64,000 nucleotides of DNA from Acidobacteriota bacterium (GTDB lineage: Bacteria; Acidobacteriota; Vicinamibacteria; Vicinamibacterales; JAFNAJ01). Shown piece by piece: positions 3,099-59,869 of the stretch. The stretch is from positions 4,900-68,899 of the forward strand of contig JAHDVP010000029.1 of assembly GCA_023384575.1 (NCBI GenBank). The letters run 5' to 3'. Position numbers and translations under genes: made by a program. The notes under the pieces are model-generated. The model searched no databases, had not been told where the DNA came from, and worked only from the letters and a program-made list of their open reading frames with translations. The first letter of the stretch is position 1. Each line of letters starts with the position of its first letter.

Positions 3099-3157
3099 CG
3101 AAGCGCGCCCGCGCCCTCTGCGGCCTTCCGGGCCATGCGTGATGGAGGCATTCCGGG

Positions 3158-4777: not shown

Positions 4778-4863
4778 CAAACGTGGGCGACAGTCGTCTC
4801 GCTGCCGGGATTCCGACAGCTGCCCTTGGACACGTCTGTCTTCAAGCTCGGAGGAGCGATCAC

Positions 4864-5808: not shown

Positions 5809-5817
5809 GCGAGGAGA

Positions 5818-8142: not shown

Positions 8143-8165
8143 CGCGCTTTCCGCGTGAGCCTCGT

Positions 8166-8193
8166 GGGCCGGTCGTCGTTCGACGACCGGCCC
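8166..8193 (+). terminator. rho-independent terminator after the porin gene
   Basis: Perfect 12-bp stem GGGCCGGTCGTC / GACGACCGGCCC with GTTC loop, followed by the pyrimidine/T-rich stretch GCTCCCTTTCTT. Confidence 0.6.
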
Positions 8194-8463
8194 GCTCCCT
8201 TTCTTGGCTCCTGCGTTCCCCTCCTCGAGGGCGACGCAGCCCGGGGTGTGGACCTGCGTCGGAAGCGCGCGGCCGACTCGACGGCTGCCGGGTTTCCGGA
8301 AGTCCAGGGCTCGAAATCCGCCCAATTGGGGCCTTTTTCGGAAGACGCTGGGTTGGCGTCGGCCTTGCAGGTCCTTCTGGCAAACTCTGGTGCCCCTGCC
8401 CCGCGCGAGCGCTCGCCCGGATCACGGCACGCACCTCGATTGTCGTCGCCTACGGAGGCCCCC

Positions 8464-11890: not shown

Positions 11891-12760
11891 CTACGTGAGG
11901 ATCTTCCGTGCGATCTCGAAGAGACCGGGTGCCCGCTCGTCGAGCATCGCCAGCCAGGCCGCGTCGATGCCGAGCTCCTCGCAGACCGGGTCGTCGAGGA
12001 TGTCTGCCTGGTCGACGTCGCAGCCGAACCCGTAGCGGTGGGCCAGCCGGTTGGCCGCGTACGCGACCGCCGTCTCGCGGCGCTGCGAGGGCGCTGCCGT
12101 GTACTCGTGGTGGTAGACGACCGGGGCTTCGAGCGACGAGGGGAGCCGCCACCGCCGCAGCGCGAGGCCTCCCATGGCCGCGTGTCTCTCGAGGATCGCG
12201 AGCTCGACGATCGCATCGGGGAGGGGAGTGCCGGTGCGTCGGCGGTGGTCGTGGGCGAGCTTGAGGATGACCAGCTTCCCGATGTCGTGCAGGAGGCCGC
12301 ACAGAAACGCCTCGTCCTGGCCGACGCGCACGCGCTCCGCGAGCAGCCGGGCGACGTAGGCCGTACCGATCGCGTGGTCGACGAGCTGGCCTCCGCGTCC
12401 GCCGTACACCGCGGGGTCGTGCATGCGCGAGGTGAAGCACACGGTGACGACGACGTTGCGGATGGCCGAGGTCCCGAGCCGGACGATGGCCTCGTGGACC
12501 GTCGAGATCTCCTGGAGGGGCGCGCTGAAGGCCGAGTTCGCGAGCCCCAGCACGCGGGAGGCGATAACCTGCTCTTTCGAGACCAGGGCCGACAGGCGCG
12601 AGATCGACACGTCGGGATCGGAGGCGAGCTCGATCACCTGGTGCGCGAGCGCCGGGAGCATCGGGACGACGAGGTCGTCGGTCGTCAGCCAGCCGAAGAG
12701 GTCGTCGGGCGGCAGGGCCGCGTCCGCGACGATCTCGGGGGCGGTGTGGGGATCGGGCAC
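11891..12760 (-). CDS. HDOD domain protein
   Basis: Typical HDOD pattern: LPMLPALAHQVIELASDPDVSISRLSALVSKEQVIASRVLGLANSAF...LLHDIGKLV. Last gene of the cheY-cheX operon. Confidence 0.85.
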   Translation of the reverse strand: MPDPHTAPEIVADAALPPDDLFGWLTTDDLVVPMLPALAHQVIELASDPDVSISRLSALVSKEQVIASRVLGLANSAFSAPLQEISTVHEAIVRLGTSAIRNVVVTVCFTSRMHDPAVYGGRGGQLVDHAIGTAYVARLLAERVRVGQDEAFLCGLLHDIGKLVILKLAHDHRRRTGTPLPDAIVELAILERHAAMGGLALRRWRLPSSLEAPVVYHHEYTAAPSQRRETAVAYAANRLAHRYGFGCDVDQADILDDPVCEELGIDAAWLAMLDERAPGLFEIARKILT

Positions 12761-12797: not shown

Positions 12798-13259
12798 TCA
12801 GCTCGTCACGATGAGCTCGACGAAGATCTCGTGGTCGTCCATCCTGAACGGCAGCAGGATCCGCCGACCGCGCGTCATCGGCTTGATGTAGAAGTCCGAG
12901 CCCATGGTCACCGTCGGGATCGAGATCGCCCACACGTCACCTTCTTCGGCCATGCGCGTCCTGAACGACCCGGCGATCATGTTCGTGATCTCGCCGATGG
13001 CGTCGGGCACCTCGCCGTTGACCTCCTCGGGAGGCTGACCGAGCATCGCCCCGGCGATCTCTCGTGCGGCGTCGAGCGTGCTGTAGAACGCCACGAGTCC
13101 GGTCGACGACCCCGCGAATCCGATGGTGCCGACGACGTTCGACCCCGGACGAAGCGCCTCGCCTTCGATGGGCAGTCCGCGCATCAGGCTCCGGAACACC
13201 ATGGTCGCGAAGACCTCTTCGGTCGAGGCGACGAGCTTGTCAACGAACACAGGACTCAC
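12798..13259 (-). CDS. cheX: CheX-type chemotaxis (CheY-P) phosphatase
   Basis: 153 aa with CheX-like pattern: VVGTIGFAGSSTGLVAFY...AREIAGAMLG...VPDAIGEITNMIAGSF. Sits directly downstream of cheY. Confidence 0.75.
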   Translation of the reverse strand: MSPVFVDKLVASTEEVFATMVFRSLMRGLPIEGEALRPGSNVVGTIGFAGSSTGLVAFYSTLDAAREIAGAMLGQPPEEVNGEVPDAIGEITNMIAGSFRTRMAEEGDVWAISIPTVTMGSDFYIKPMTRGRRILLPFRMDDHEIFVELIVTS

Positions 13260-27038: not shown

Positions 27039-27554
27039 ATGAGCGACAAGACGCCAGCGAACGCGAAGTCCTCCCCAGACCCGGCCCCCAAGAAGGGCGG
27101 CCTTCTGAAGAAACTCATTCTCCTCTTCATGGCACTGGCCATCGTCGGTGGTGGGGCGGCCGGGGGCTTCCTGTGGTGGCAGGGACAGTCGGCGCACGCC
27201 GAGGGCGCGCAGGCGCCGCCGCCGGCCGAGCCGAACGCCGTGCTGCCGCTCGAACCCTTCGTGGTGAACCTCTCCGACCAGGCGGGCTCGCGGTTCCTGC
27301 GGGTCAATCTCCGGCTGCTCCTCCTCACGCCTCGGGGGCAGCGCGACCTGAAGGCCTTGATCGAGAACGAGGTGGTGATGGCCAGGCTCAGATCGGCGCT
27401 GCTGGAGTTGCTGAGCACCAAGACGGCCGACGAGCTCGTGACCGCCGAGGGCAAAGACGAGTTGAAGCGCGAGATCGTCGCGCAGGCCGCCGGCATTCTC
27501 TCCGAGGTCGAGGTCCGCGATGTCCTCTTCTCCGAGTTCGTCGTCCAGTTCTGA
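27039..27554 (+). CDS. fliL: flagellar basal body-associated protein FliL
   Basis: Single N-terminal TM (LILLFMALAIVGGGAAGGFLWW). FliL pattern PLEPFVVNLSD...RFLRVNLRLLL...DVLFSEFVVQF. Confidence 0.88.
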   Translation: MSDKTPANAKSSPDPAPKKGGLLKKLILLFMALAIVGGGAAGGFLWWQGQSAHAEGAQAPPPAEPNAVLPLEPFVVNLSDQAGSRFLRVNLRLLLLTPRGQRDLKALIENEVVMARLRSALLELLSTKTADELVTAEGKDELKREIVAQAAGILSEVEVRDVLFSEFVVQF

Positions 27555-27843
27555 CGTGTCGGCGGTGTCGGGCGACTCGCTGGAGACTCCCGCATTCTCG
27601 CCGTTTGCCGACGTGCGGTGCCCGATCAGTGTGGTACTCGGCACCGGCACGGTCACGGTGAGGCAGTGCCTCGGGCTGAGGCGAGCGAGCGTCCTGCGTC
27701 TCGATCAGTCGGCCGGCGAGGACCTCAGCCTCCAGGTCGGCGGCGTGGTCATCGCGCGGGGCGAGATCGTCATTGTCGAGGACAGCACGGCTCTCCGCCT
27801 GACGGAGATCGCCCCGGGGCCGATCGGCGAGGAGCGCGCGTGA
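27520..27843 (+). CDS. fliN: short FliN-type switch protein (SpoA domain only)
   Basis: 107 aa. SpoA-like core ISVVLGTGTVTVRQCLGLRRASVLRLDQSAGEDLSLQVGGVVIARGEIVIVEDSTALRLTEI. The start is uncertain: ATG 27520 overlaps fliL by 35 nt, and GTG 27556 is an alternative. Confidence 0.75.
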   Translation: MSSSPSSSSSSDVSAVSGDSLETPAFSPFADVRCPISVVLGTGTVTVRQCLGLRRASVLRLDQSAGEDLSLQVGGVVIARGEIVIVEDSTALRLTEIAPGPIGEERA

Positions 27844-34170: not shown

Positions 34171-35030
34171 ACACCAGCAAGGACGACGCCGGCGGGCGCC
34201 GTGGCGTGGTCACGGTCGCCGTCACCAGCGGGAAGGGTGGTGTCGGCAAGACCAACGTCGTGGTGAACCTGGCCGTGGCGCTGGCCAGGCTGCGCAACCG
34301 CGTGGCGATCCTCGATGCGGACTTCGGCCTGGGCAACGTCGACGTCCTGCTCGGGCTCACGCCGGCGCACCACCTGGGCCATCTGCTCGTCGGCCAGAAG
34401 GCGATGGAGGACATCGTCGTCGAGGGGCCGCTTGGCATCCGCGTGGTGCCGGCGAGCTCGGGGTTGCGTGAGCTGACGGCCCTGACCCCGGCTCAGTGGC
34501 AGCGGCTGCGCGAGGGCATCGACTCGCTCGCCGCGTCGCTCGATTTCCTGCTGATCGACACGGGCGCCGGCATCTCGAGCAACGTCGTGGACCTGCTGGC
34601 CGGGTCGGAGCGCGTTCTCGTCGTGACCTCGCTCGAGCCGACGGCCGTCGTCGATGCCTACGCCATGATCAAGGTCGTGACCTCGTTTGACGCGGCCAAG
34701 GAGATTGGCGTTCTCATCAACGGGGCGCGCGACGCGGCCGAGGCCGACCTGGTCTATCGCCAGCTCGAGGTCGCGGCCACCCGCTTCCTGCACCGGCGGC
34801 TCAAGTCGTATGGCTTCGTCGCACAGGACCCGGCCCTGCGCGATGCGGTGCTCCGGCAGCGGGCGCTGGTCGACATCGATCCGCAGGCTCCTGCCAGCCG
34901 CTGCTTCAAGATCCTCGCCTCGCGCGTGGCCAGCCTGGCGCCGCTCGGCGGCCCAGGGCTGCGCCTCGTGCCACGACTCGAACGGGCGGGCGGACGCCTG
35001 ACCGGCGTGGAGGCCCCGCAGTGCGCATGA
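34167..35030 (+). CDS. flhG: MinD/ParA-type ATPase FlhG (FleN)
   Basis: ATGA overlap with flhF. Deviant Walker A SGKGGVGKTNVVVNLA; ILDADFGLGNVDVLLGL. Confidence 0.88.
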   Translation: MNTSKDDAGGRRGVVTVAVTSGKGGVGKTNVVVNLAVALARLRNRVAILDADFGLGNVDVLLGLTPAHHLGHLLVGQKAMEDIVVEGPLGIRVVPASSGLRELTALTPAQWQRLREGIDSLAASLDFLLIDTGAGISSNVVDLLAGSERVLVVTSLEPTAVVDAYAMIKVVTSFDAAKEIGVLINGARDAAEADLVYRQLEVAATRFLHRRLKSYGFVAQDPALRDAVLRQRALVDIDPQAPASRCFKILASRVASLAPLGGPGLRLVPRLERAGGRLTGVEAPQCA

Positions 35031-35767
35031 CGACCCCGGCTCCGACTCTCGCGGATCGCGACCAACTGGTCATCGCCCACGTCGGTCTCGTCAAGGCGCT
35101 CGCTCACCGGCTGGCGCAGCGCCTGCCGTCGCAGGTCGAACTGAACGACCTGATCAGCGTCGGTGTGCTCGGTCTCATCGATGCGGCCGGACGATACCGT
35201 CCGTCGATGGGGGTGCCGTTTGACGCGTTCGCCCGTCGCCGCGTGCAGGGGGCGATGCTCGACGCCCTGCGCGATCTCGACTGGGCGCCGCGGTCGCTGC
35301 GCCGGATGCGTCGCGATCTCGACGCGACCGTCGCCCGGCTGCGTCACGACCTCGCCCGCGAGCCCGACGAGGACGAGATCGCCGGCGCCATGTCGCTGTC
35401 GTCGGAGGAATACGCGAAGATGCTCGACCAGGTCCGCTCGCTCGAGGTCGGGGCCATCCGGCAGCTCGACGCCACCGGCGAGGACGGCACACCGCTGATC
35501 GAAGTGGTCGTCGATCCCGAGCACGGGCCAGAGGCCCAGCTCGAGCGGACCGAGCTGCGGCGGCTGCTCGCCACCGCCATCATGGAATTGCCCGAGCGCG
35601 AGCGGCACATCCTCGCGATGTACTACGAGGAAGAGATGACCATGGCCGAAATCGGCGCGGTCATCGGCGTCTGCGAGTCGCGCGTGTCGCAGCTGCGGTC
35701 GCTCGCGCTCTCGCGCCTGCGGACGAGCATGAGGCGCCTGCTCGCCCGACCGGAGCCATCGGCATGA
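35027..35767 (+). CDS. fliA: flagellar sigma factor FliA (sigma-28)
   Basis: ATGA overlap with flhG (a GTG at 35021 is also possible). Region 2: LISVGVLGLIDAAGRY...FDAFARRRVQGAMLDALR. Region 4: ERERHILAMYYEEEMTMAEIGAVIGVCESRVSQL. Confidence 0.9.
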   Translation: MTTPAPTLADRDQLVIAHVGLVKALAHRLAQRLPSQVELNDLISVGVLGLIDAAGRYRPSMGVPFDAFARRRVQGAMLDALRDLDWAPRSLRRMRRDLDATVARLRHDLAREPDEDEIAGAMSLSSEEYAKMLDQVRSLEVGAIRQLDATGEDGTPLIEVVVDPEHGPEAQLERTELRRLLATAIMELPERERHILAMYYEEEMTMAEIGAVIGVCESRVSQLRSLALSRLRTSMRRLLARPEPSA

Positions 35768-36750
35768 GCAAGATCCTGTCGCAGGAAGAAATCGACGCCC
35801 TGCTGACCTCGGCCGTCGAGATCGAGCGGTCGACGCGGGCGGCGCCCGACGAGGCCCACGACTCGATCATCGTCTACAACTTCCGGCGTCCCGACCGGGT
35901 CTCGAAGGAGCAGATCCGGTCGCTGCACTTCCTGCACGACCGGTTCGCGCGCAACGTGTCCACCTCGATGTCGGCGTACCTGCGAGCGGTCACCGACGTC
36001 AACATCGCCTCGGTCGAGCAGTTCACGTACTCCGAGTTCCTGATGTCGCTGCCCGACCCGACCGCGTTCTACGCCGTGTCCATGAACCCGCTGGACGGGC
36101 TGCTGGCGCTCGAGCTCAATCCCAACGTCGCCTTCACGATGATCGACCGCATGCTCGGCGGGACGGGGCGGGGAGTGGTCCTCTCGCGGGCCCTGACCGA
36201 GATCGAGCAGAACGTCATCGACGCGGTCGTGAAGCTCATCGTCGACAACCTCACCGACACGTGGCACGGCATCGTCGACGTCACGTTCAAGATCAGCGGA
36301 CGCGAGACACGGCCGCAGATGCTGCAGATTGCGGCGCCGAACGAGGTCGTCGTGCTGCTCGGGTTCGACATCCGCATCGGCGACGCGCGCGGGATGCTGA
36401 ACATCTGCATCCCCGCGGCCGCGATTGAATCGGTCGGCTCGAGCTTCACGCAGAGCTGGCATCGGACGAGGCGAGAGCCCACGGCAGCCGACCGCGTGCA
36501 CCTCTACACGAACCTGGCGCGGGTGAAGCTGCCGGTCACGGCATCGCTCGAGACCACACTCGCGGCCAGGGAGCTGATCGAGCTGCGGGCCGGCGACGTG
36601 CTGTCCCTGGGCCGGCCCGTGCGGCAGTCGCTCGACGTCCGCGTCCGGGGCAGCGTCAAGTTCCGCGGCCGGCTCGTGCGCGACGGGCTTCGCGCGGGTG
36701 TGCGCATCGATCAGGCCGACGGCGGAGCCGTCGGCCACGAGGCAACGTAG
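35764..36750 (+). CDS. fliM: flagellar motor switch protein FliM
   Basis: ATGA overlap with fliA. N-terminal CheY-P binding-like LSQEEIDALL; YNFRRPDRVSKEQIRSLHFLHDRFARN. Confidence 0.92.
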   Translation: MSKILSQEEIDALLTSAVEIERSTRAAPDEAHDSIIVYNFRRPDRVSKEQIRSLHFLHDRFARNVSTSMSAYLRAVTDVNIASVEQFTYSEFLMSLPDPTAFYAVSMNPLDGLLALELNPNVAFTMIDRMLGGTGRGVVLSRALTEIEQNVIDAVVKLIVDNLTDTWHGIVDVTFKISGRETRPQMLQIAAPNEVVVLLGFDIRIGDARGMLNICIPAAAIESVGSSFTQSWHRTRREPTAADRVHLYTNLARVKLPVTASLETTLAARELIELRAGDVLSLGRPVRQSLDVRVRGSVKFRGRLVRDGLRAGVRIDQADGGAVGHEAT

Positions 36751-37569
36751 ATGCCCAGCGACCATGCCCTCACATCTGCCCTGACCGCCGCCCTCGTCGA
36801 GGAGCTGGCGATCGTCCTCGGGGCGCTCGTCGGCGAGGCCGGCCAGGCCTCGCCCGCGTCCGCGCCCGCCGGTCGGTCCGTCGAATGGGTGGCCAGCTCG
36901 ACGTTCGGCGGTCCGGTCGAAGGGAGCGTCGCCATCGGGTTCAGCCGCGACGACGGGGCGAGCCTCGCGAAGGCGGTGATGGGGTTCGACGACGTGCCCG
37001 ACGACACGGCGGTCGTCGACATGATCCAGGAGATCGCGGCACAGGCGTTCTCGGCGCTGGGTCAGCGGACCGAGGCGGCCGGCGCCAGCCTCGCCCCTGC
37101 CGTCGTCACATCGACCGCGCCCGCCTCGGGCACGTCCTCCTTCGTCGTCACCCTTGGTGCCACCCTGGCCCCGGTCGTCACGTGCTGGTGCGAGGCCGCG
37201 CGTGTCGCGGCGGCAGCGCCCGTGTCCCCATCTGCCGCGGCCGGCGCTGACGCGCCGGCGGGGCGTGCGGAGGCGACCATCCCGCTAGCCCACGCCACCC
37301 CCGACAACCTCGAGGTCATCCTCGACATCGACCTGCCGCTGACCGTGCGCTTCGGCGTGACCGAGATGACGCTCGACGCGCTGACCCGGCTCGGTCCGGG
37401 CTCCGTGATCGACCTCGGTCGGTCACCCGACGATCCGGTCGAGGTTCTGGTCAATGGGCGGCTCGTCGCGCGGGGAGAGGTCGTCGTCGTCGCCGGCAAT
37501 TATGGCGTGAGAATCCACGAAGTCGTGAGTGCCGCCGATCGGATCCGCAGCCTCGGCAGCCCGGCATGA
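36751..37569 (+). CDS. fliY: long FliN/FliY-family switch protein (CheC-like N-region + C-terminal SpoA domain)
   Basis: C-terminal LEVILDIDLPLTVRFGVTEMTLDALTRLGPGSVIDLGRSPDDPVEVLVNGRLVARGEVVVVAGNYGVRI. The 190-aa N-terminal region includes DMIQEIAAQAFSALG. Starts directly after the fliM stop. Confidence 0.8.
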   Translation: MPSDHALTSALTAALVEELAIVLGALVGEAGQASPASAPAGRSVEWVASSTFGGPVEGSVAIGFSRDDGASLAKAVMGFDDVPDDTAVVDMIQEIAAQAFSALGQRTEAAGASLAPAVVTSTAPASGTSSFVVTLGATLAPVVTCWCEAARVAAAAPVSPSAAAGADAPAGRAEATIPLAHATPDNLEVILDIDLPLTVRFGVTEMTLDALTRLGPGSVIDLGRSPDDPVEVLVNGRLVARGEVVVVAGNYGVRIHEVVSAADRIRSLGSPA

Positions 37570-37630
37570 GTTTCGCAGTGCCGTCTCCCGACGCCACCGG
37601 CCTTCGCTGGTGGCGGAGGGACGGCTCATC

Positions 37631-38110
37631 ATGACCTACTTCGTCGGCGCCGCATGTGTCGTGCTGCTCGTGCAGCTCGTGTTCCTCTGGAAACTCGTAC
37701 GGGCGCTGGGGCGGCTGGAGTCGCTCGAAGAGCGCGTCGCCCACTTCGGCGATGCGATGTCGCTGCTCACCGAGACCGCCGATGCCGGGTTCCGGTCGGT
37801 CGCGGGCGAAGTCGAGCGTCTCGCCGCCGCTGACCGTCGTCTGCGCGCCGCCAAGGCCGAGCGGATCGCCGAAGCGATCCGCCAGGGGCAGGCGGTCGCC
37901 AGCGTCGCCGTCGGCGAGCAGGTGTCGGAGGGCGAGGTGCGGCTGCGCGCGCACCTGCAGCCGGCGGCGGCCGACCGAGTCCACGATGCTCCCGTGCCGA
38001 AGCCGCGCAGGAAGGTTCGAACCCCTCAGCCCGCAAGGGCCGTCCGGCAAGCGGCGCCGACGCGTCCGGTGCCCGCCGCAGGCGAGCTGTTTGAATCGCA
38101 TCTGCTTTGA
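37631..38110 (+). CDS. hypothetical single-pass membrane protein with coiled-coil (function unknown)
   Basis: Internal ATG of ORF 37529..38110 preceded by GGAGGG. TM helix YFVGAACVVLLVQLVFLWKLV followed by a helical, charged region. Codon bias is consistent with coding. Confidence 0.55.
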   Translation: MTYFVGAACVVLLVQLVFLWKLVRALGRLESLEERVAHFGDAMSLLTETADAGFRSVAGEVERLAAADRRLRAAKAERIAEAIRQGQAVASVAVGEQVSEGEVRLRAHLQPAAADRVHDAPVPKPRRKVRTPQPARAVRQAAPTRPVPAAGELFESHLL

Positions 38111-38178
38111 GCAGAGACGCACCGGGACGGACGCCGGGTGGCGACACCGGGCGCGGCACGGTGTGCAGAGTTGACACG

Positions 38179-39021
38179 ATGGCGAGATGTGCGCATCAGC
38201 AATGTGGGCGATGGCGACCCGACCGACTCGCGCGGGCGGGCCATCTCGGCGTCGCCCTGGGTGATGTCTGGTTCTGCTCACGTGCCTGCCTGGCCGCGCA
38301 CACCCGGATCCTGCTCGAGGACGAGGCCACCACCGTCGAAACCCCAGCGCGTGGCGTGGGGCGGGCCACGGCGCTGCGCCTCGGCGTGTACCTGCTCGCG
38401 CACCAGGTCCTCACGGGGGAGACGCTTCGCATCGCCCTGCGCGAGCAGCGTCAGAGCGGCCGGCGCCTCGGGGCGGAACTGGTCGCACTCGGACTCGCCT
38501 CACAGGACGAAGTGGTGCGTGCGCTGGCGGCGCAGGCCGGCATCGGCTATCTGACCAGCGTCGATCTCCGGCGCGTGGCGGCCGGACCGGGCGACCTGTC
38601 ACGGGAAGCCGTTCGGGCCATCGGCGTCGTACCGATCGACGCGACCGAGGCCGGGCGCCGTCTCCGCGTGGTCTGTCAGGCCCCGCTGCCGCGGCTGGCG
38701 CTGGCCGCCCTCCGCCACATGACGGGCGGGCAGGTCGAGGCGTTCCTCGTCTCGGATGACCTGTGGCGTCAGGTGCGCGAGCAGTACGCGCAGGACCGCC
38801 CGTCGACGGCGGTCGCCCCGCCGGTGCGCACCATTCCGGCGGCGGCGGAGCGGATCGCCGACGCCGCGCGGCGCGGCACTCTCCGCCGCATGCAGCACGC
38901 CCGCTGCGATCCGTTCGTCTGGGTACGGCTCGAAGGCGACGATCTCAGGGAGGACCTGCTGTTGTCGGCCGAATCGAGCAGGAAGGACATGCCATGGCCG
39001 GTGGTGCCTACGTCGCACTGA
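38179..39021 (+). CDS. stand-alone Cys4 zinc-finger + MshEN/T2SS-E N-terminal domain protein (putative c-di-GMP receptor)
   Basis: Two tandem 24-aa motifs, RLGVYLLAHQVLTGETLRIALREQ and RLGAELVALGLASQDEVVRALAAQ, with a 5-aa spacer (nt 38377-38535). CX4C...FCSRAC at the N-terminus. The start is uncertain (ATG 38179; TTG 38107 in the track). The 3' end overlaps flgF by 28 nt. Confidence 0.65.
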   Translation: MARCAHQQCGRWRPDRLARAGHLGVALGDVWFCSRACLAAHTRILLEDEATTVETPARGVGRATALRLGVYLLAHQVLTGETLRIALREQRQSGRRLGAELVALGLASQDEVVRALAAQAGIGYLTSVDLRRVAAGPGDLSREAVRAIGVVPIDATEAGRRLRVVCQAPLPRLALAALRHMTGGQVEAFLVSDDLWRQVREQYAQDRPSTAVAPPVRTIPAAAERIADAARRGTLRRMQHARCDPFVWVRLEGDDLREDLLLSAESSRKDMPWPVVPTSH

Positions 39022-39719
39022 GTGGCTTGCGGTCGCGGATCGAGCAACTCGATCGCCTCGCCTCCGACCTCGCCAACGTCGGCACGGCGGGCTACAAGTC
39101 GGAGCGCGTCACGACGGTGAGTGCCGAGCGGCCCGGCTTCGGGACGGTGCTGCAGTCGGCCATCGACGTCGCGCCGGGCCCTGGGCGGCTCGACCTCCGG
39201 TCGGGCCCGCTGACGACGACGGGACGCGATCTCGACTTCGCCATCGAGGGGCGGGGGTTCTTCGTGGTCGACACGCCGGCCGGGCCCCGTTACACCCGGA
39301 ACGGGCAGTTCACGCGCAGCACCGACGGCACGCTGACGACCGCCGACGGCATGCCGGTGCAGGGTGCGTCTGGCGCCCCGTTGCGACTGCCGGCCGGAGC
39401 CCTCGAGGTGGGGACCGATGGCACGCTTCGCGCAGGTGGGGTGGTGGCGGGCCGATTGCGGGTCGTCGACTTCGACTCGCACGTCGGGCTCGCCCGCGAA
39501 GAGGCGGGGCGCTTCCGCGCGCCGGCGAGCCTGACACCCCGGGAGAGCGACGGACACCACGTGAAGAGCGCAACCCTCGAGCAGTCAAACGTTTCCGTGG
39601 TCGACCGCGTCGCGCAACTCACGGAGGTCACGCGCGGGTTCGAAGCGCTGCAGCGCGGGCTGTCCATCCTGATGAACGACGTGGAAGGGCGGGCCATCAA
39701 CGAATTCGGGCGTCGGTAG
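38994..39719 (+). CDS. flgF: flagellar basal-body rod protein FlgF
   Basis: Internal ATG of ORF 38763..39719. SDLANVGTAGYKSERV; RDLDFAIEGRGFFVV; C-terminal LEQSNVSVVDRVAQLTEVTRGFEA. Confidence 0.88.
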   Translation: MAGGAYVALSGLRSRIEQLDRLASDLANVGTAGYKSERVTTVSAERPGFGTVLQSAIDVAPGPGRLDLRSGPLTTTGRDLDFAIEGRGFFVVDTPAGPRYTRNGQFTRSTDGTLTTADGMPVQGASGAPLRLPAGALEVGTDGTLRAGGVVAGRLRVVDFDSHVGLAREEAGRFRAPASLTPRESDGHHVKSATLEQSNVSVVDRVAQLTEVTRGFEALQRGLSILMNDVEGRAINEFGRR

Positions 39720-39785
39720 GCCGACACCCCGGCATTCGGTCAATCGGCCGGACGGACGAGCACTTGAGCGGGCCGCGAGGACACC

Positions 39786-40574
39786 ATGATTCGAGCACTC
39801 TACACGGCGGCGAGCGGGATGAACGCCCAGCAGACCAACATCGACAACATTGCGCACAACCTGTCGAACGTGAACACGGCCGGCTTCAAGAAGAGCCGCG
39901 TGGAGTTCGAGGACCTGGTCTACCAGCAGATCACGCAGCCCGGCAGCCCCACGTCGACGAGCGGGGAGTCGCCGACGGGACTGTTGATCGGCCTCGGGAC
40001 CCGCGCGGTGGCGACCGCGCGCGATTTCGCGCAGGGCAACATGCGGGCAACGAGCGCGCCGCTCGACCTCGCCATCGAGGGACGCGGGTTCTTTCAGGTC
40101 ACGCTGCCCGACGGGCAACTCGGGTACACCCGCAGCGGGGCACTGCACCTCAACAACGAGGGTGGACTCGTGACCGCCGAGGGCTACCGCATCGAGCCTC
40201 AGATAGCGATTCCCGAGAACGCCACGTCCGTGAGCATCTCGAAAGACGGCATCGTCTCGGTGGCGCTCGCTGGCCAGACGGCTTCACAGGAGGTCGGAAC
40301 GATCGAGCTGGCCGCGTTCGTCAATCCGGCGGGATTGCAGGCCATCGGCGGCAACGTCTTCGTGCCGACGACCGCGTCGGGTGAGCCCACGACCGGGGTG
40401 CCTGGGACCGACGGCATCGGCACGGTGCTGCAGGGGTTTCTCGAGGAGTCGAACGTGAGCGTCGTCGAGGAGATGGTCAACATGATCCTCGGCCAGCGGG
40501 CGTACGAAGCCAATTCGCGCGTGGTGCGCGCGGCCGACGAGATGCTCGGCCAGGTCAACCAGATGGCCAGGTAG
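39786..40574 (+). CDS. flgG: flagellar distal rod protein FlgG
   Basis: MIRALYTAASGMNAQQTNIDNIAHNLSNVNTAGFKKSR...LEESNVSVVEEMVNMILGQRAYEANSR. Confidence 0.95.
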   Translation: MIRALYTAASGMNAQQTNIDNIAHNLSNVNTAGFKKSRVEFEDLVYQQITQPGSPTSTSGESPTGLLIGLGTRAVATARDFAQGNMRATSAPLDLAIEGRGFFQVTLPDGQLGYTRSGALHLNNEGGLVTAEGYRIEPQIAIPENATSVSISKDGIVSVALAGQTASQEVGTIELAAFVNPAGLQAIGGNVFVPTTASGEPTTGVPGTDGIGTVLQGFLEESNVSVVEEMVNMILGQRAYEANSRVVRAADEMLGQVNQMAR

Positions 40575-40576
40575 CG

Positions 40577-41266
40577 ATGGTCAGGCGCCTGTTCCTCGCC
40601 GCGTGGTGCCTCGCGCTCGCCGGAGGGCCGGTCGCGGCCGCCGACGGCGGCGCCCCGCTGGCGGTGGCGCTGGTGGCGGCCGTCCAGGCCCGGATGGGCG
40701 AGCACGTCGAGGTCACGATCGACCAGGTGCGCGTCGTCACGGCCGTCCCCGAGCAGGACGGGCGGCTCTTCGCCGACCCTCAACCGGGGAGTCACGTCGG
40801 AGGGAAGGTCCGCTTCGCCCTGCGCTTCATCGGTGACGACGGGCGGCTGCACGTCGGGGCGGCCGAGTGCGTCGTGCGCGTCTCGGGACCGATGGCCCGC
40901 CTGGCGCACGACGTCGAGCGCGGCCACGTCCTGCGCCCCGAGGACATCGAGGTGGTCCACGCCGACGTCGGGCGCATGCCGCTGCAGCCGCTCGACGGGG
41001 CGGTCGTGGGCCACCGGACGCGACGCGCCCTGCGGATGGGCGAACACCTGCGCGCGGCTCTCGTCGAGCAGGTGTCGCTCGTGCGCAGCGGCGATCGGCT
41101 GGTGGTGCGCGTCCGCGTCGGCGAGGTCGAGGTCACGACGACGGCGATCGCGTCGCAGCACGGCCAGGTAGGAGAGATCATCCGGGCGGTGAACGCCGAC
41201 ACGGGACGCCGGCTGCGGGTGCGCGTCACTGGGCCGGCCGAAGGAGAGGTCATCCATGCATCCTAG
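40577..41266 (+). CDS. flgA: flagellar P-ring assembly chaperone FlgA
   Basis: Signal peptide. SAF-like C-terminal region (VRSGDRLVVRVRVGEVEVTTTAIASQHGQVGEIIRAVNADTGRRLRVRV). Position before flgH-flgI. Confidence 0.8.
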   Translation: MVRRLFLAAWCLALAGGPVAAADGGAPLAVALVAAVQARMGEHVEVTIDQVRVVTAVPEQDGRLFADPQPGSHVGGKVRFALRFIGDDGRLHVGAAECVVRVSGPMARLAHDVERGHVLRPEDIEVVHADVGRMPLQPLDGAVVGHRTRRALRMGEHLRAALVEQVSLVRSGDRLVVRVRVGEVEVTTTAIASQHGQVGEIIRAVNADTGRRLRVRVTGPAEGEVIHAS

Positions 41267-54238: not shown

Positions 54239-55420
54239 ATGTCCTCGAGCGTCCCGCTTCCGTTCGTTCCGTTCGTCCGGCCGGCCATCACCGACGCCGA
54301 GATCGAAGATCTCGTGGCGGTGCTGAGATCGGGGTGGCTGACGACCGGGCCCCAGGTGAAGGAGTTCGAGGCGAGGTTCGCCGACTACGTCGGGGCCGCG
54401 CACGCGGTGGCGGTCAACTCCTGCACCGCGGCGTTGCACCTGTCGTTGCTGTCGGCGGGTGTCGGGCCAGGCGACGAGGTCGTCACGACGCCGCTCACCT
54501 TCTGCTCGACGGCGAACGTGATTCTGCACGCGGGGGCGACCCCGGTGTTCGCCGACGTCGATCCGGGCTCAATGAACCTCGATCCTGCCGCAGCCGCCGA
54601 GGCGATCACGCCCAGGACGAAGCTGCTGCTGCCCGTGCACCTGGGGGGAAGGCCGGCCGACATCCCGTCGTTCCGGACGCTGGCCGCCAGGCGGGGCCTC
54701 ACGTTGGTCGAGGACGCGGCGCACTGCGTCGAAGGGTGGGTCGCCGGGGAGAAAGTCGGGACGACCGCCGACTACTCCTGCTTCAGCTTCTACGCTACGA
54801 AGAACCTCACAACCGGCGAAGGCGGCATGGTGACGACAGCCGACGAGGCGGCGGCGCGGTGGATGCGCATCGCCGCGCTCCATGGCATGAGCCGCGACGC
54901 CTGGGCGCGCTACGGCCGGGGGGGCACGGCCTTTTACGACGTCGTCACGCCGGGGTTCAAGTACAACATGATGGACCTGCAGGCCGCCCTCGGCCTCCGT
55001 CAGTTGCAGCGGCTCGCGGAGATGCAGACCCGGCGTGCCGCGGTGTGGGAGTACTACGACGATCAGCTGGCCGAGCTGCCCTTGCGGCGCCCGCCGCCGG
55101 TGCCAGCCGGCGACGTCCACGCTCGACATCTTTATATGGTGCTCGTCGACGAGCGAGAAGCGGCCATGACCCGCGACGAGCTGTACGAAGGGCTCGCCGG
55201 CCTGGGGGTCGGCGCGAGCGTGCACTTCAGGGCGGTTCACCTGCATTCGTATTATCGCGACCGGTTCGGGTTCGAACCCGGCCAGTTCCCGCACGCCGAG
55301 TCGATTTCGAGCCGGACGTTGTCACTGCCGCTCTCGGGAGCGACGACCGATCAGGACGCCGAGCGCGTCGTCGCGGCCCTGCGGCAACTGCTGTCGCGGG
55401 CCCGCCGGAGTCGCGGCTGA
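54239..55420 (+). CDS. DegT/DnrJ/EryC1/StrS-family PLP-dependent sugar aminotransferase (PseC/SpsC-like)
   Basis: FVRPAITDAEIEDLVAVLRSGWLTTGPQVKEFE...AVNSCTAALHLSLL...SFYATKNLTTGEGG (Lys for PLP). Confidence 0.85.
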   Translation: MSSSVPLPFVPFVRPAITDAEIEDLVAVLRSGWLTTGPQVKEFEARFADYVGAAHAVAVNSCTAALHLSLLSAGVGPGDEVVTTPLTFCSTANVILHAGATPVFADVDPGSMNLDPAAAAEAITPRTKLLLPVHLGGRPADIPSFRTLAARRGLTLVEDAAHCVEGWVAGEKVGTTADYSCFSFYATKNLTTGEGGMVTTADEAAARWMRIAALHGMSRDAWARYGRGGTAFYDVVTPGFKYNMMDLQAALGLRQLQRLAEMQTRRAAVWEYYDDQLAELPLRRPPPVPAGDVHARHLYMVLVDEREAAMTRDELYEGLAGLGVGASVHFRAVHLHSYYRDRFGFEPGQFPHAESISSRTLSLPLSGATTDQDAERVVAALRQLLSRARRSRG

Positions 55421-56436
55421 TGGCCCGGGTGCGAGCGGGCCAGCTCCGCACGCGCCTGGCGGTTGTCTTTCGCGTGGCGGCCGGTCCGCGACAGGGGTAC
55501 GGCCATCTCGTCCGGTCGCGGCGGCTCGCGCACGCCCTCGGGGTACCGTGGGTGGTGTCGATTCGAGGCGGTCCGGCCGCGAGAGACGTGGCGTGGGCGC
55601 TCGGGGGCCTTGTCGACGAACGCCCCGTGCGGGACCTGATCGACGAGAGGCGTCCCGCGGTGCTGGTCGTCGACGATCCGGCCCGAGCCCCCGCCGAGGC
55701 GGTCATTCGGCTCGCCCGGCGCGCTGGCGTGGCGACCCTGGGCCTCCACGACCTCGGGCTTGGCTGTCTCGACGCCGACGTGGTCGTCGACGGCAGTCTG
55801 CCCGGCGGACCGGCGCTCGCCCGGGTCGAGGCCCGGAGGAGGCGAACCGGCCCACGCTACGCGGTGGTCGACCCGTACACCTGCGACGTTCGCCGGCGGG
55901 TCGACCGCCGACCACGCTGGGACATCGTGGTCTCGCTCGGCGGGGGAGGGCGCGCGACGCTCGCGCTGGCAGTGGCCCGTCGACTGGCTCAGAGAAGCCC
56001 CGCCGCTCGCGTGGTGGTCACGACCGGATTCGTGGAGAGGCCCGGCAACTCCGCCCCCGTCGGCGTGGTGTGGTGGCCGCGGGGCCGTTCGATCGTGCGC
56101 GCGATCGCCAGCGCACGGGTGGCCGTGCTCGGTGGAGGAGTGACGGCCTACGAGGCCGCGGCGCTCGGCGTCCCGGCCGTCCTCGTGGATGTCGTGAGAG
56201 CCCAGCGTCCGACCGTGCGGGCATTTGCGCGGTGTGGGGCCGCCGTCGCCGGTGGGTCCATCACCAGAAGGGTCACGGGGGCCGCCCTCGAACGCCTGGT
56301 CGCCCGCGTCGAACGGCTGCTCCGGTCGCCCGCCCGGCAGCGAGCCATGGCCGCCGCAGGCCGGTCCCTCGTCGACGGCCGCGGCGCCGTCCGCGTCGCC
56401 GCGCTCGTTCGGCGTCTGGCTGGAGGCCGGCGATGA
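55420..56436 (+). CDS. PseG/SpsG-like UDP-sugar hydrolase (GT-B fold, glycosyltransferase 28 C-terminal-like)
   Basis: Internal ATG of ORF 53812..56436 overlapping the upstream stop. VVFRVAAGPRQGYGHLVRSRRLAHAL matches the PseG N-terminal G-x-GH-x-x-R pattern. C-terminal GGGVTAYEAAALGVPAV. Confidence 0.65.
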   Translation: MARVRAGQLRTRLAVVFRVAAGPRQGYGHLVRSRRLAHALGVPWVVSIRGGPAARDVAWALGGLVDERPVRDLIDERRPAVLVVDDPARAPAEAVIRLARRAGVATLGLHDLGLGCLDADVVVDGSLPGGPALARVEARRRRTGPRYAVVDPYTCDVRRRVDRRPRWDIVVSLGGGGRATLALAVARRLAQRSPAARVVVTTGFVERPGNSAPVGVVWWPRGRSIVRAIASARVAVLGGGVTAYEAAALGVPAVLVDVVRAQRPTVRAFARCGAAVAGGSITRRVTGAALERLVARVERLLRSPARQRAMAAAGRSLVDGRGAVRVAALVRRLAGGRR

Positions 56437-57125
56437 CGCGTTGTCGCGCGGTGCTGTTCGACATGGACGACACGTTGTACCCGGAGCGACGGTTCGCGTT
56501 GAGCGGGTTTCGGGCCGTCGCGCACGAGGTCGAACGTCGAGTCGACGTGCCGGCGCGAGAGGTGTTCGCCGAGCTGCGCCGGGCGCTCAGCGACGGCGCG
56601 CGAGCCGCCGCCTTTCAGCGAGTGTGCGGCCGTTTCGCCCTCGATCCGACGATCGTCCCCGACCTCGTGCGGGTGCTGCGGACGCACCCGGCCCGGCTGC
56701 GGCTGCCGCGAGAGGCCGAGCGTCTGCTGGTGAGGCTCCGCTCCCGCTTCCGGCTCGCGATCGTCACCAACGGGCCCGTCGAGATGCAGCGGAGCAAGGT
56801 CGAGGCGCTCGGACTGCGACGCCTGGTCGACGAGGTCATCTACGCCGTCGAACACGGAGGCGTCGGCAAGCCCGACGCGGCGCCCTTTCTCGCGGCGCTC
56901 GACCGCCTCGATGTGGAGGTCGATCGTGCGGTCCACGTTGGTGATGATCCCGAGCGCGATGTGGCCGGCGGTCGGGCCGTCGGCCTGAAGACGGTACGCG
57001 TGCGCTGGCTGACGCGCGATCGATTCCAGCCGACGCCGGAGGACGAAGCCGATGAGGTCGTGGACCGCCTCGATGAGGTGCCAGCGGCGCTCGACCGGCT
57101 CTGCGGAGGAGACGATGCTGCTTGA
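56433..57125 (+). CDS. HAD-superfamily hydrolase/phosphatase
   Basis: ATGA overlap with the upstream gene. Motif I VLFDMDDTLY; later IVTNG; GKPDAAPF; VGDDPERDV. Confidence 0.8.
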   Translation: MTRCRAVLFDMDDTLYPERRFALSGFRAVAHEVERRVDVPAREVFAELRRALSDGARAAAFQRVCGRFALDPTIVPDLVRVLRTHPARLRLPREAERLLVRLRSRFRLAIVTNGPVEMQRSKVEALGLRRLVDEVIYAVEHGGVGKPDAAPFLAALDRLDVEVDRAVHVGDDPERDVAGGRAVGLKTVRVRWLTRDRFQPTPEDEADEVVDRLDEVPAALDRLCGGDDAA

Positions 57126-58164
57126 GATTGCCGGCCGCGAGATCGCGGCGGGGCACCCGCTCTTCGTCGTGGCCGAGATCGGGCTCAACCACGGCGGGCA
57201 CCTCGACGCGGCCCTGGCGCTGGTCGACGCGGCGGCGGCGGCCGGCGCCGCGGCCGTGAAGCTGCAGACGCTGCACGCAGAGCGGCTGGTGGCGCCGTCG
57301 TGTCCGCCGCCGCAGCACGTGCGCGCCGCGTCGCTCGTCGACTTCTTCCGCCAGTTCGAACTCGACGAGGAGGCGCACCGGGCCGTGGCCGCCCGCGCGC
57401 GTTCCGGGGGCCTCGCGTTCATCTCCACGCCGTTTGACGAAGCGGCCGTCGAGCTGCTCGAGCGCGTCGGGTGCGACGCGTTCAAGATCGCGAGCGGCGA
57501 CCTCACCCACCTGCAGCTCGTCGAGCGGGTCGCTCGTTCGCGGCGGCCGATGATCCTGTCGACGGGCATGGCCGAGCTCGAGGAGGTGGGCGAGGCGCTC
57601 GAGTGCGCGCGCGGGGCGGGTGCCGTCGAGCTGGCCATCCTGCACTGCGTGTCGGCCTATCCCGTTCCCGCGGGACACGAGAACCTGGCGGCGATCTCCA
57701 CGCTCGCGCGGACGTTCGGGGTGCCCGTGGGCCTGTCCGACCACGGCGTCGACGAGCTGGCGCCCGCGATCACCGTGGCTCTTGGCGGCGCAATCTACGA
57801 GCGGCACATCGTCGCCGCCGACGGCGTCGGCGCCGTCGACCAGGCCGTGTCGTCGACGCCGGCCGGCCTGGCCCGGGCGATCGCGCTCGCCGAGCGGGCG
57901 CGCCGGGCGATTGGCGACGGGCGGAAGACCTGCCTGCCGATCGAGGAGCCCAATCGCGTCCCGTCGCGGCGGGCCCTCTACGCCAGCCGGCCCATCCCCG
58001 TCGGAACCGTTCTCGAGGCCACCGACCTCGTCGCCCTGCGTCCGCTCGCGGGAATCGATGCCCGCTTGTGGCGGTCGGTCATCGGGCAGACGGCGGTCCG
58101 TCCGGTGGCACCCGGAACCCCGGTGCAGGCCGATGACCTGGGAGGGAGCCCATGCGGCGCCTGA
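57115..58164 (+). CDS. NeuB-family nonulosonic acid synthase (pseudaminic/legionaminic/N-acetylneuraminic acid synthase-like) with SAF domain
   Basis: Internal ATG preceded by GGAGGAG. PLFVVAEIGLNHGGHLDAALALVDAAAAAGAAAVKLQT...FKIASGDLTHLQL...MILSTGMA...LHCVSAYP. The C-terminal segment is SAF-like. Confidence 0.85.
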   Translation: MLLEIAGREIAAGHPLFVVAEIGLNHGGHLDAALALVDAAAAAGAAAVKLQTLHAERLVAPSCPPPQHVRAASLVDFFRQFELDEEAHRAVAARARSGGLAFISTPFDEAAVELLERVGCDAFKIASGDLTHLQLVERVARSRRPMILSTGMAELEEVGEALECARGAGAVELAILHCVSAYPVPAGHENLAAISTLARTFGVPVGLSDHGVDELAPAITVALGGAIYERHIVAADGVGAVDQAVSSTPAGLARAIALAERARRAIGDGRKTCLPIEEPNRVPSRRALYASRPIPVGTVLEATDLVALRPLAGIDARLWRSVIGQTAVRPVAPGTPVQADDLGGSPCGA

Positions 58165-59165
58165 ATGTCCTCGTGACGGCGGCGTCGCGACGGGTGGCCC
58201 TCGTCAGGGCCTTCAAGCGGGCGCTCTCCCGCCTGGGCGTCCAGGGCGAGGTGCTCGTCACCGACGTCAACCCGCTCTCGCCCGCGGTGCACGTCGCCGA
58301 CCGCGCCATCCGCGTGCCCCTCGCGACGGATCCCGACTACATCGGCTGTCTCCGCGCCATTTGCCGCCGGGAATCGGTCGGTCTCCTAATCCCGACCATC
58401 GACGACGAGCTCGTGGCGTTTGGCAGCGCCCTCGAGGCGTTCGCCTCCGACGGCGTGGCCGTCTCGGCCTCGCCGCTCCTCACGGCGGAGATCTGCAACG
58501 ACAAGCTGCGCACCTGCCGTCACCTGCGTGAGCACGGTGTGGCGGCAGCCGAGTCGTGCTCACCCGACGACCTCCCGGCCGACCCGCAGTTCCCGCTCTT
58601 CGTGAAGCCTCGGGGCGGCCGGGGCGGGATTGGGGCCTATGTCGTGCGAAATGCCAGGGAGCTCGACTTCTTCACGGGCTACGTGGCCAATCCCGTGGTG
58701 CAGACCTATCTCGACGGACCGGAGTTCACGCTCGACCTGCTGTGCGATTTCGACGGGCGTGCCCTCGCGGTGGTACCGCGCGAGCGGGTCGTCATCAGGG
58801 CCGGCGTCATCGACCGGGGCCGCACCGTGCGCGACGAGTCGCTCATCGGCCTGGCGCTCGCGTGTGCGGGCGTTCTGCCGTTCCGCGGTGCCGTCAACAT
58901 TCAGTGCCGCGTGGTCGACGGGACGCCGACCGTCTTCGAGATCAACCCGCGGTTCTCCGGCGGGATTCCCCTCACGATCGAGGCCGGGGCCGACTTCCCA
59001 CGCTGGCTGGTCGAGCTCGCGCTCGGGCGGCCGGTGGTCCCGGCGATCGGGCAGTTCACCGACGGTCTCTGGATGACGGCGTACGAATCGGCCATCTTCC
59101 TGGCCGCTCACCGCCTCGACTCGCTCGAGCACCCCGCGACGCCAGGACGCGAGCCCGTCGGCTGA
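58152..59165 (+). CDS. ATP-grasp domain protein
   Basis: RRLNVLVTAASRRVALVRAFK...NDKLRTCRHLREHGV...FPLFVKPRGGRGGIG...FEINPRFSGG. Confidence 0.75.
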   Translation: MRRLNVLVTAASRRVALVRAFKRALSRLGVQGEVLVTDVNPLSPAVHVADRAIRVPLATDPDYIGCLRAICRRESVGLLIPTIDDELVAFGSALEAFASDGVAVSASPLLTAEICNDKLRTCRHLREHGVAAAESCSPDDLPADPQFPLFVKPRGGRGGIGAYVVRNARELDFFTGYVANPVVQTYLDGPEFTLDLLCDFDGRALAVVPRERVVIRAGVIDRGRTVRDESLIGLALACAGVLPFRGAVNIQCRVVDGTPTVFEINPRFSGGIPLTIEAGADFPRWLVELALGRPVVPAIGQFTDGLWMTAYESAIFLAAHRLDSLEHPATPGREPVG

Positions 59166-59869
59166 TGGGTGCGACGACCCCGGTGCTCGTCGTCCTGCAG
59201 GCGCGCATGGGGTCGACGCGACTGCCGGGCAAGGTCCTGCGGCCTCTCGCAGGGCACACCTTGCTGTCGCATTGTGTCCGCCGGCTCGTGGCGGCCGATG
59301 TCGGCCCAGTCGTCGTCGCGACGACGCGGCGCGACGAAGACGATGCCGTGGTCGACGAGGCGAGGCGGCTGGGCGTGGCCTGGGCCCGGGGGGCTGACGC
59401 GGATGTGCTGCAGCGGTTCGCGCTCGTGGCCGATTTGTGGAACGCGGAGGTCGTGATTCGGGCCACGGCCGACAACCCGGTCGTCGATGTCGGGGCGCCC
59501 GCGCGGGCGCTGCAGTGGATGGCGGCGGGTGCCGATTACGTCGTGGAAGACGGGCTGCCCGTGGGCGCGGCGGTAGAGGTCATGAGACGCAGTGTCCTGG
59601 ATCGAGCGCATCGCGAGGCGACGACGGCCCACGATCGTGAGCACGTCACGCCGTACGTGAAGGCGCGACCGGACGAGTTTCGAATCGAGAGGCCGGCGGT
59701 TCCGGCCGCCCTCAGCCGATCGGACCTGCGGCTGACGGTCGACACGCGATCCGACCTGATCTTCGTGGAGCGGGTGCTCGAGGCGGCAGGCGGCGAGGCG
59801 GCGCTGGTGCCGCTCGCCCGCGTCATCGAGCACGCCGTGCGGCTGACGCGGCCCCTGGAGGAGTCATGA
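59165..59869 (+). CDS. cytidylyltransferase (SpsF/PseF-type CMP-sugar synthetase family)
   Basis: Internal ATG of ORF 58556..59869. VLVVLQARMGSTRLPGKVLRPLAGHTLL...RATADNPVVD...REHVTPYV. Confidence 0.75.
   Translation: MGATTPVLVVLQARMGSTRLPGKVLRPLAGHTLLSHCVRRLVAADVGPVVVATTRRDEDDAVVDEARRLGVAWARGADADVLQRFALVADLWNAEVVIRATADNPVVDVGAPARALQWMAAGADYVVEDGLPVGAAVEVMRRSVLDRAHREATTAHDREHVTPYVKARPDEFRIERPAVPAALSRSDLRLTVDTRSDLIFVERVLEAAGGEAALVPLARVIEHAVRLTRPLEES

Follow-up and report, generated by a model that had tools for sequence, protein, structure and literature searches.

We analyzed a window of 64,000 nucleotides from a member of the Vicinamibacterales (Acidobacteriota bacterium, assembly GCA_023384575.1, contig JAHDVP010000029.1, positions 4,900 to 68,899), and in particular one gene of its flagellar cluster, which encodes a protein of 280 residues with an N-terminal Cys4 region, a MshEN domain, and a conserved C-terminal domain (the Cys4-MshEN protein). 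The gene occupies positions 38179-39021 on the plus strand and ends with the stop codon TGA 39019-39021. The mechanical open reading frame (ORF) begins at TTG 38107, and the first-pass annotation, made from the sequence alone, had placed an ORF of this extent (38107-39021, plus strand) between fliY-like and unknown genes and flgF. The ORF and its location were confirmed, and the start was refined to ATG 38179, since all homologs begin, uniformly with M-[AP]-R-C-A, at the equivalent of the MARCA sequence of the window protein. The G+C content at third codon positions (GC3) is 0.83, as in the adjacent genes. The 3' end overlaps by 28 nt with flgF (38994-39719, plus strand), whose start codon ATG 38994 lies inside the Cys4-MshEN gene. 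On the same strand upstream are fliA, encoding a sigma-28-type sigma factor (35021-35767), fliM (35764-36750), a gene for a long FliN/FliY-like switch protein (36751-37569), and a small gene (37631-38110) encoding a protein, which we call FipA-like, in which an N-terminal transmembrane helix is followed by a long helix and then by a small C-terminus resembling a helix-turn-helix (HTH). Thus the fliY-like gene of the earlier description is indeed FliN/FliY-like, and its unknown gene has now acquired a tentative family. The FliN/FliY-like protein is 272 residues long and matches FliMN_C (8e-23) and the NCBIfam models of FliN/FliY, and its N-terminus is weakly CheX-like (0.013).

The central part of the protein (38356-38793, plus strand) is a complete MshEN domain, consisting of the four-helix MshEN_N and the alpha/beta MshEN_C (equivalent to T2SSE_N1), as recognized by Pfam PF05157, by a profile search of PDB, and by Foldseek. 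MshEN_N bears the 53-residue signature for binding of cyclic di-GMP (c-di-GMP) at 38377-38535 (plus strand), which consists of two 24-residue motifs, RLGVYLLAHQVLTGETLRIALREQ (aa 67-90) and RLGAELVALGLASQDEVVRALAAQ (aa 96-119), and the spacer RQSGR (aa 91-95), exactly at the coordinates initially proposed. Compared with the consensus RLGxx(L/V/I)(L/V/I)xxG(L/V/I)(L/V/I)xxxxLxxxLxxQ, both copies and the required five-residue spacer are present. The deviations are at three places, Q10 in the first copy and A12 and V17 in the second, as had been noted before, and none of them affects the consensus Arg (position 1), Gly (position 3), or Gln (position 24). Judged by its sequence, the double-motif match is far beyond chance. 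The NCBIfam model NF053729 ("c-di-GMP_motif", 53 positions) is matched over its full length at E = 2.6e-13 and 49.5 bits, above the cutoff of 38, and the Pfam MshEN family PF05157 is matched in the alpha/beta half (aa 140-208) with 30 bits against a gathering threshold of 23.1.

These assignments agree with further comparisons. The profile of 38 family members, when searched against PDB sequences, aligns its positions 57-205 with the MshEN domains of Thermus thermophilus PilF (4.6e-37), Geobacter PilB (2e-15), and Vibrio cholerae MshE (5HTL, 2.9e-12); for XpsE, which does not bind c-di-GMP, E is no better than 0.7-0.9. The AlphaFold2 model of the window protein (predicted local distance difference test, pLDDT, 89; predicted template modeling score, pTM, 0.82) matches in Foldseek the c-di-GMP-bound structures 5HTL, 8PDK, and 9GLG, MshE and PilF-GSPII-B being among them, with target-normalized TM-scores of 0.68-0.73 and E-values of 1e-7 to 1e-8. 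Thus the MshEN identity suggested at first, and the proposal that the remainder of the domain follows the N-terminal fold of the ATPase of type II secretion systems (T2SS), were both borne out. The absence of a secretion ATPase downstream of the domain was confirmed as well: no T2SSE match was found, neither another Pfam domain nor any domain for an enzymatic output comes after it, the protein stops at residue 280, and the PilB model TIGR02538 covers the window protein over PilB residues 2-139 only. No PilZ family was matched at E ≤ 1 in the Pfam scan of the protein. We conclude that the window protein has every computationally testable feature of a MshEN domain family member and is to be assigned to this family, and that it is neither a secretion ATPase nor a PilZ protein.

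A first search yielded 155 full-length relatives at E ≤ 0.001, with identities of 37-94% for the matches listed (120 of 155). When 1.84 billion representatives were searched exhaustively with a profile, 123 matches at E ≤ 1e-30 were obtained, followed by a second tier of full-length proteins of the same architecture at 22-29% identity; the profile of this tier added 294 more clusters, and the family contains approximately 450 cluster representatives overall. Its members are named in the databases only as "hypothetical protein" or "T2SS protein E, N-terminal domain". By their genome titles they lie in the Acidobacteriota, and they form three deep clades, that is, clade a of the Vicinamibacterales, which includes the window protein, clade b of the Terriglobia/Acidobacteriaceae, and clade c of unclassified Acidobacteriota. 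Two metagenome-assembled genomes (MAGs) titled Bifidobacterium, L023 (CALQBJ020000004.1) and L029 (CAYLTD010000043.1), bear the acidobacterial flagellar locus; these labels are almost certainly wrong, since the locus is the same and in L023 shows near-collinearity with the Acidobacteriota MAG L024. A scan of the genome contigs with the single window protein as the query returned no relative. Matches restricted to MshEN in Myxococcota and Deltaproteobacteria (L039, L065-L067) have no flagellar neighbors and were not assigned to the family. A truncated or pseudogenized PilB or GspE was ruled out by the retention of the length and of all three parts in the approximately 450 representatives, and by the fact that the gene never occurs in a pilus or T2SS context. 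A chance overprinted ORF in a genome of 70% GC was ruled out because the protein is conserved, and its synteny preserved, even at 22-29% identity.

The double motif was located in 274 family sequences and tabulated by clade. Among the 153 sequences of clade a, position 1 is Arg in 79% and Lys in 9-13%, G3 is found in 100%, L6 in 93-98%, L21 in 93-98%, and Q24 in 94-100%, the leucines L6, L17, and L21 together being conserved at 83-98%; the spacer has five residues in 151 of 153 cases. The window protein itself retains both Arg, both Gly, both Gln, and the Leu triads, with one Leu replaced by Val. Some MshEN domains do not bind c-di-GMP, and the loss of binding in XpsE has been ascribed to specific residue changes (Wang et al. 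2016). At the eight XpsE loss-of-binding positions, seven residues of the window protein are identical, and the remaining one is the motif-compatible Val at position 17 of motif 2, aligned to L54 of MshE. Thus the contact residues are under selection in clade a, and c-di-GMP binding by the proteins of this clade is likely.

The MshEN domain is flanked by two further conserved regions; because of the C-terminal one, the initial description of the protein as "MshEN-only" does not hold. The N-terminal region (38179-38331, plus strand), defined by conservation and by the AlphaFold2 model, is zinc-ribbon-like: residues 1-51 form two short beta-hairpins bearing C4, C9, C33, and C37, followed by a helix (aa 35-51). 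The pattern is C4-x4-C9-x23-C33-x3-C37, with F32 counted within x23; the four cysteines had been recognized correctly, whereas the form of the motif given at first, CX4C-X23-FCX3C, placed F32 outside this spacing and was off by one. In clade a, C4, C9, C33, C37, G24, and W31 are each conserved in at least 90% of sequences; across all three clades, no variation is seen at C9, C33, and C37, while C4, G24, and W31 remain conserved in at least 90%. The family motif, CxxxxC...W[FY]CSxxC, matches the (F/Y)CSxxC pattern of zf-FCS/TRASH, yet zf-FCS, TRASH, and YHS gave no match at E ≤ 10 in five N-terminal fragments covering all clades. Thus, because no hidden Markov model (HMM) is matched, the FCS/TRASH-type label proposed earlier denotes a pattern resemblance and not membership, and metal binding by the four cysteines is putative. 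The C-terminal domain (38821-38973, plus strand; aa ~215-265), delineated from the alignments and the AlphaFold2 model, consists of a helix (aa 219-231) and three strands. It bears the motif RCDPFvWVRLEG, in which W248 and R250 are invariant, W248 being so in all clades. Searches of the isolated N- and C-terminal fragments against Pfam gave only noise even at E of 10, the family profile matched no PDB sequence in these parts, and Foldseek of the full model retrieved only MshEN structures and nothing for either the Cys4 or the C-terminal domain.

Gene order was compared in a sample of about 60 loci: 36 unique loci of the Vicinamibacterales type and two gene tables without DNA, 17 of the Terriglobia type, and eight of the third clade. 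The Cys4-MshEN gene is retained in a flagellar cluster at every examined locus of the three clades, as would be expected if the link to the flagellum is real. The order in the 36 Vicinamibacterales loci and two gene tables is flhA-flhF-flhG-fliA-fliM-fliN/Y-[small transmembrane protein]-target-flgF-flgG-flgA-flgH-flgI, where the target is the Cys4-MshEN gene. The 17 Terriglobia loci have fliA-fliM-fliN-target, often followed by genes for an HDOD protein, a CheY-like receiver (REC) protein, and CheX, and then by flgF-flgG, and the eight third-clade loci have flhF...fliA-fliM-fliN-[small transmembrane protein]-target-flgF-flgG. Thus the gene is located downstream of fliA-fliM-fliN in all loci examined, except in three Terriglobia loci (L045, L054, and L056), where it directly follows fliA, and it is upstream of flgF-flgG in most loci. 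Adjacent genes around it often overlap. In the window, no promoter consensus was found from fliA to flgG, and between the target and its neighbors there is no consensus for a promoter or a terminator; a generic scan of 34900-40700 gave no promoter-like site and a single terminator-like site, within flgF, and the sigma-28 promoter consensus has no match anywhere in the window. Apparently, the target is co-transcribed within the fliA-fliM-fliN...flgF-flgG operon.

At least eight Terriglobia loci have the HDOD gene directly 3' of the target (L045, 7885-8670; L046, 7916-8839; also L047, L049, L052, L054, L055, and L056), commonly followed by CheY-like REC and CheX genes before flgF, with cheX being one to three genes 3' of the target. 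The window also contains an HDOD gene (11891-12760, minus strand) paired with cheX (12798-13259, minus strand), 25 kb upstream of the target. The window cluster as a whole is a complete flagellar supercluster, comprising a sigma-54 activator, flgB/C, fliF-G-H-I-J-K, flgE, fliL, a short fliN, fliP...flhA, flgK/L, fliW-csrA, fliS-fliD, flagellins, and glycosylation genes, and extending to motAB; a canonical FlgM is encoded in the same cluster. It contains two FliN-type genes, namely the short canonical fliN (27520-27843, plus strand) upstream of fliP and the FliY-like gene (36751-37569, plus strand) after fliM. The ORFs scanned in the window yielded neither a PilZ protein nor any further known receptor for c-di-GMP besides the target.

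The small gene that precedes the target in the window has counterparts in other loci (for instance, L001 7564-7989, L059 6547-7020, and L042 3-413). Its predicted product has residues 1-5 outside, then a transmembrane helix, a coil, and a conserved cytoplasmic C-terminal domain, in which the spacing of the invariant G86, E102 (+16), and L105 (+19) equals that of G110, E126, and L129 of VpFipA. FipA (DUF2802) is a membrane-anchored partner of FlhF on which polar flagellation depends in Vibrio, Pseudomonas, and Shewanella; its homologs are reported to be widespread among gamma-proteobacteria, and it co-occurs with FlhF (PMC11620751). The acidobacterial protein thus shares with FipA the N-terminal transmembrane helix, the coiled helix, the G/E/L spacing, and the setting in an flhF/flhG cluster, and looks like a FipA homolog. 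It differs in falling below the DUF2802 gathering score (best 18.4 bits against 33.5), and its binding to FlhF is putative. Weak domain matches among 30 members are to Sigma70_r4_2 (18/30), DUF2802 (4/30), and DUF6115 (4/30); third-clade members exceed the DUF6115 gathering threshold (34.5 and 29.7 bits against 27) and match DUF2802 at 0.002-0.05. The family profile weakly matches region 4 of an extracytoplasmic function (ECF) sigma factor (3HUG, E = 0.0038), and the matches that Foldseek retrieved for the FipA-like model were all weak ones to HTH structures, at E > 0.3. The idea that this protein mimics region 4 of FliA was dropped, as an hhalign comparison of its profile with the window FliA gave nothing. 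The gene adjoins, and often overlaps, the target gene in clades a and c, and, among the loci compared, occurs only in these two clades, whose loci have flhF (clade a also has flhG). In Terriglobia, neither flhF nor a FipA-like gene was found within 7 kb upstream in any of the 16 loci with an upstream flank (16/16); no flhF or flhG lies between flhA and fliA, and flhA abuts fliA in L040. The co-distribution of the FipA-like gene and flhF agrees with the co-occurrence reported for FipA and FlhF (PMC11620751). If the homology is correct, the FlhF-FipA polarity module described in gamma-proteobacteria would extend to the Acidobacteriota.

Control of swimming by c-di-GMP is central to the way in which bacteria switch between lifestyles, and most of the proteins known to connect c-di-GMP directly with the flagellum are of the PilZ kind, FleQ/FlrA-type regulators, or FliI. 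In soil, Acidobacteriota rank among the most abundant bacteria, and to our knowledge almost nothing has been learned about the regulation of their motility. The Cys4-MshEN family, fixed in the operon in three deep clades, provides a concrete candidate for a c-di-GMP-motility link in this phylum, combining the other widespread c-di-GMP receptor fold with two uncharacterized domains awaiting functional assignment. With the MshEN domains of MshE (5HTL), PilF GSPII-B (8PDK), and Geobacter and Myxococcus PilB it shares the fold, the 53-residue double motif, and presumably the mode of c-di-GMP binding; unlike these pilus and T2SS ATPases, it has no ATPase, carries the Cys4 ribbon and a novel C-terminal domain, and is encoded in a flagellar and not in a pilus or T2SS cluster. 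As a small c-di-GMP receptor proposed to act on the flagellar motor or switch it resembles YcgR, MotI (DgrA), and FlgZ, whereas its receptor fold is unrelated and the PilZ barrel (RxxxR / DxSxxG) was not detected.

MshEN proteins other than ATPases, and links of MshEN to chemotaxis proteins, had already been cataloged in 2016. Pseudomonas aeruginosa PA3740, implicated in swarming, consists of MshEN and a divergent T2SSE_N1 (xT2SSE_N1) with no further domains, an architecture assigned to beta- and gamma-proteobacteria (Wang et al. 2016, supplement). It is similar to the Cys4-MshEN protein in having MshEN without an ATPase or another known output domain and in the connection to motility, and differs in being listed without extra domains; the two were compared by published architecture, homology being considered for MshEN only. 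Further, (MshEN_N)2-CheX is represented by Geobacter lovleyi Glov_2742, and a CheA with an inserted MshEN_N has been listed (Wang et al. 2016, Supplementary Table 4). These proteins link MshEN to signaling by phosphorylated CheY (CheY-P), and the target lies near cheX in Terriglobia and after the FliY-like gene in the window; however, those are fusions with MshEN_N only, whereas here the proteins are separate and MshEN is complete. The MshEN region also aligns with that of E. coli NfrB, a fusion of a family 2 glycosyltransferase (GT2) and MshEN (PRK11234, partial, 9.8e-12), another non-ATPase use of the domain, but NfrB has an enzymatic output, the glycosyltransferase, and functions in exopolysaccharide synthesis. 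Finally, FliI binds c-di-GMP (Wang et al. 2016, main text). Hence the assertion of the first-pass annotation that the flagellar inputs of c-di-GMP are PilZ proteins or FleQ is incomplete, as it omits FliI and the CheX and CheA fusions. What seems to be new is the architecture, the residence in a flagellar operon, and the distribution in Acidobacteriota: the literature searched contains no description of a MshEN protein in a flagellar operon, nor of this architecture or distribution.

We suggest, with a probability of roughly 0.6, that the Cys4-MshEN protein is a dedicated, Acidobacteriota-wide flagellar c-di-GMP effector, most likely acting on the switch complex or on a CheY/CheX/HDOD module. 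Binding of c-di-GMP to MshEN_N would alter how the protein, through its zinc ribbon, its C-terminal domain, and the surface of MshEN_C, contacts a flagellar partner that is located on the cytoplasmic side of the base of the flagellum. The likeliest partner is the switch complex with FliM and FliN/FliY, or the CheY/CheX/HDOD signaling module of this complex. The protein would then act as a functional analog of the PilZ brakes YcgR and MotI on a different receptor fold. This target is favored because fliM-fliN(Y) is constantly found upstream, because Terriglobia insert the HDOD, cheY-like, and cheX genes beside the target, and because MshEN_N-CheX and MshEN_N-CheA fusions exist elsewhere. In the clades using FlhF and FlhG, the FipA-like membrane anchor paired with the protein may localize it at the nascent flagellar pole. 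It is probable that the protein constitutes a non-PilZ link from c-di-GMP to the flagellum that was previously undescribed, as had been considered possible initially; the MshEN matches, the synteny, and the literature searched speak for this. A wider formulation, for which we would give slightly less than even odds, is that the family represents a third, hitherto unrecognized class of flagellar c-di-GMP effectors, next to the PilZ brakes and to regulators of the FleQ/FlrA type, namely a fixed operon protein with a zinc ribbon, MshEN, and a C-terminal domain, directly coupling c-di-GMP to the switch or to CheY/CheX/HDOD, with a FipA-like polar anchor in the FlhF lineages.

Several observations weigh against the proposed effector role. 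Both c-di-GMP binding and the flagellar phenotype are deduced from sequence and gene order, and from the order of the genes alone the C-ring, FliA, FlhF/FipA, and the export gate are indistinguishable as targets. The survey covers Acidobacteriota only, with the taxonomy of the clades read from MAG titles. Position 10 of motif 1 in the window protein is Gln, where Gly, Ala, or Ser is found otherwise. In Terriglobia (n=115), motif 1 opens with Pro instead of Arg, and position 1 of motif 2 is Asn in 66%, Arg in 14%, and Asp in 10%; in the third clade the latter position is Ser, Asn, or Thr, and not Arg. Because of these replacements of the position-1 Arg, c-di-GMP binding is less certain in Terriglobia and in the third clade than in the clade of the window. 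The c-di-GMP-binding PA14_29490 likewise has PLG at motif 1 (alignment in Wang et al. 2016).

The same replacements could point to a non-signaling structural or assembly factor, in which the MshEN fold would serve only as a protein-protein module, as in the N1 domains of XpsE and GspE, and c-di-GMP binding would be lost. Such losses are documented in other MshEN domains (Wang et al. 2016), a precomputed Pfam match to MshEN is lacking for many members of the family, and the motif-2 Arg is absent in clades b and c (apart from the minority given above). We consider this improbable: it leaves the strong conservation of the Gly, Leu, and Gln ligand contacts unexplained, the family profile is far nearer to the binders than to XpsE, and the window protein retains both Arg and both Gln.

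If c-di-GMP is bound, the partner could still lie elsewhere in the operon. Structures are available of the T2SSE_N1 subdomain bound to the cytoplasmic domain of the membrane protein GspL/EpsL (PDB 2BH1, 4PHT), and the MshEN protein might dock in the same manner on the cytoplasmic domain of the FipA-like protein, tuning by c-di-GMP the FlhF-dependent initiation, placement, or number of flagella. The FipA architecture and G/E/L signature of the upstream gene would fit such a role, as would its adjacency to, and frequent overlap with, the target in the two clades that carry flhF. The 16 flanked Terriglobia loci, however, keep the target without either flhF or the FipA-like gene within 7 kb upstream, so the core function cannot require FlhF or FipA, and we regard docking on the FipA-like protein as unlikely. 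In Streptomyces, RsiG uses c-di-GMP to sequester WhiG, a sigma factor of the FliA family, and by analogy the target might be a c-di-GMP-armed regulator that binds FliA and silences late flagellar genes at high c-di-GMP; the likeness to RsiG-type anti-sigma factors would be one of function only. The target invariably belongs to the transcription unit of fliA, with fliA immediately before it in L045, L054, and L056; zinc-binding modules are common in anti-sigma factors; and the HTH of the FipA-like protein is sigma-region-4-like in its weak matches to 3HUG and Sigma70_r4_2. However, that HTH has no specific resemblance to the window FliA, no similarity of the target to known anti-sigma domains is detectable, its neighbor in most loci is fliN and not fliA, and the cluster already encodes a canonical FlgM. 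We regard regulation of FliA as the least likely of the three alternatives, and an effector of the switch or of CheY/CheX/HDOD remains our preferred interpretation.

Three other regions of the window deserve mention. The position upstream of motA/motB sometimes holds YcgR-like proteins; here, an ORF of 240 aa (59108-59833, minus strand) with gene-like GC3 lies directly upstream of motA/motB, and has no Pfam match and no detected PilZ domain. The genes for a DegT-type aminotransferase, a HAD hydrolase, NeuB, and an ATP-grasp protein beside two flagellin genes (54239-59165, plus strand) are consistent with a nonulosonic-acid flagellin glycosylation island. Finally, three multihaem c-type cytochrome genes and a gene for an outer-membrane porin of the MtrB/PioB type (959-8142, plus strand), the first cytochrome gene being overlapped by a cytochrome b561-like ORF and the set being followed by a radical SAM/SPASM gene (8155-9684), resemble a Mtr/Pio-like module of extracellular electron transfer located beside the flagellar cluster.

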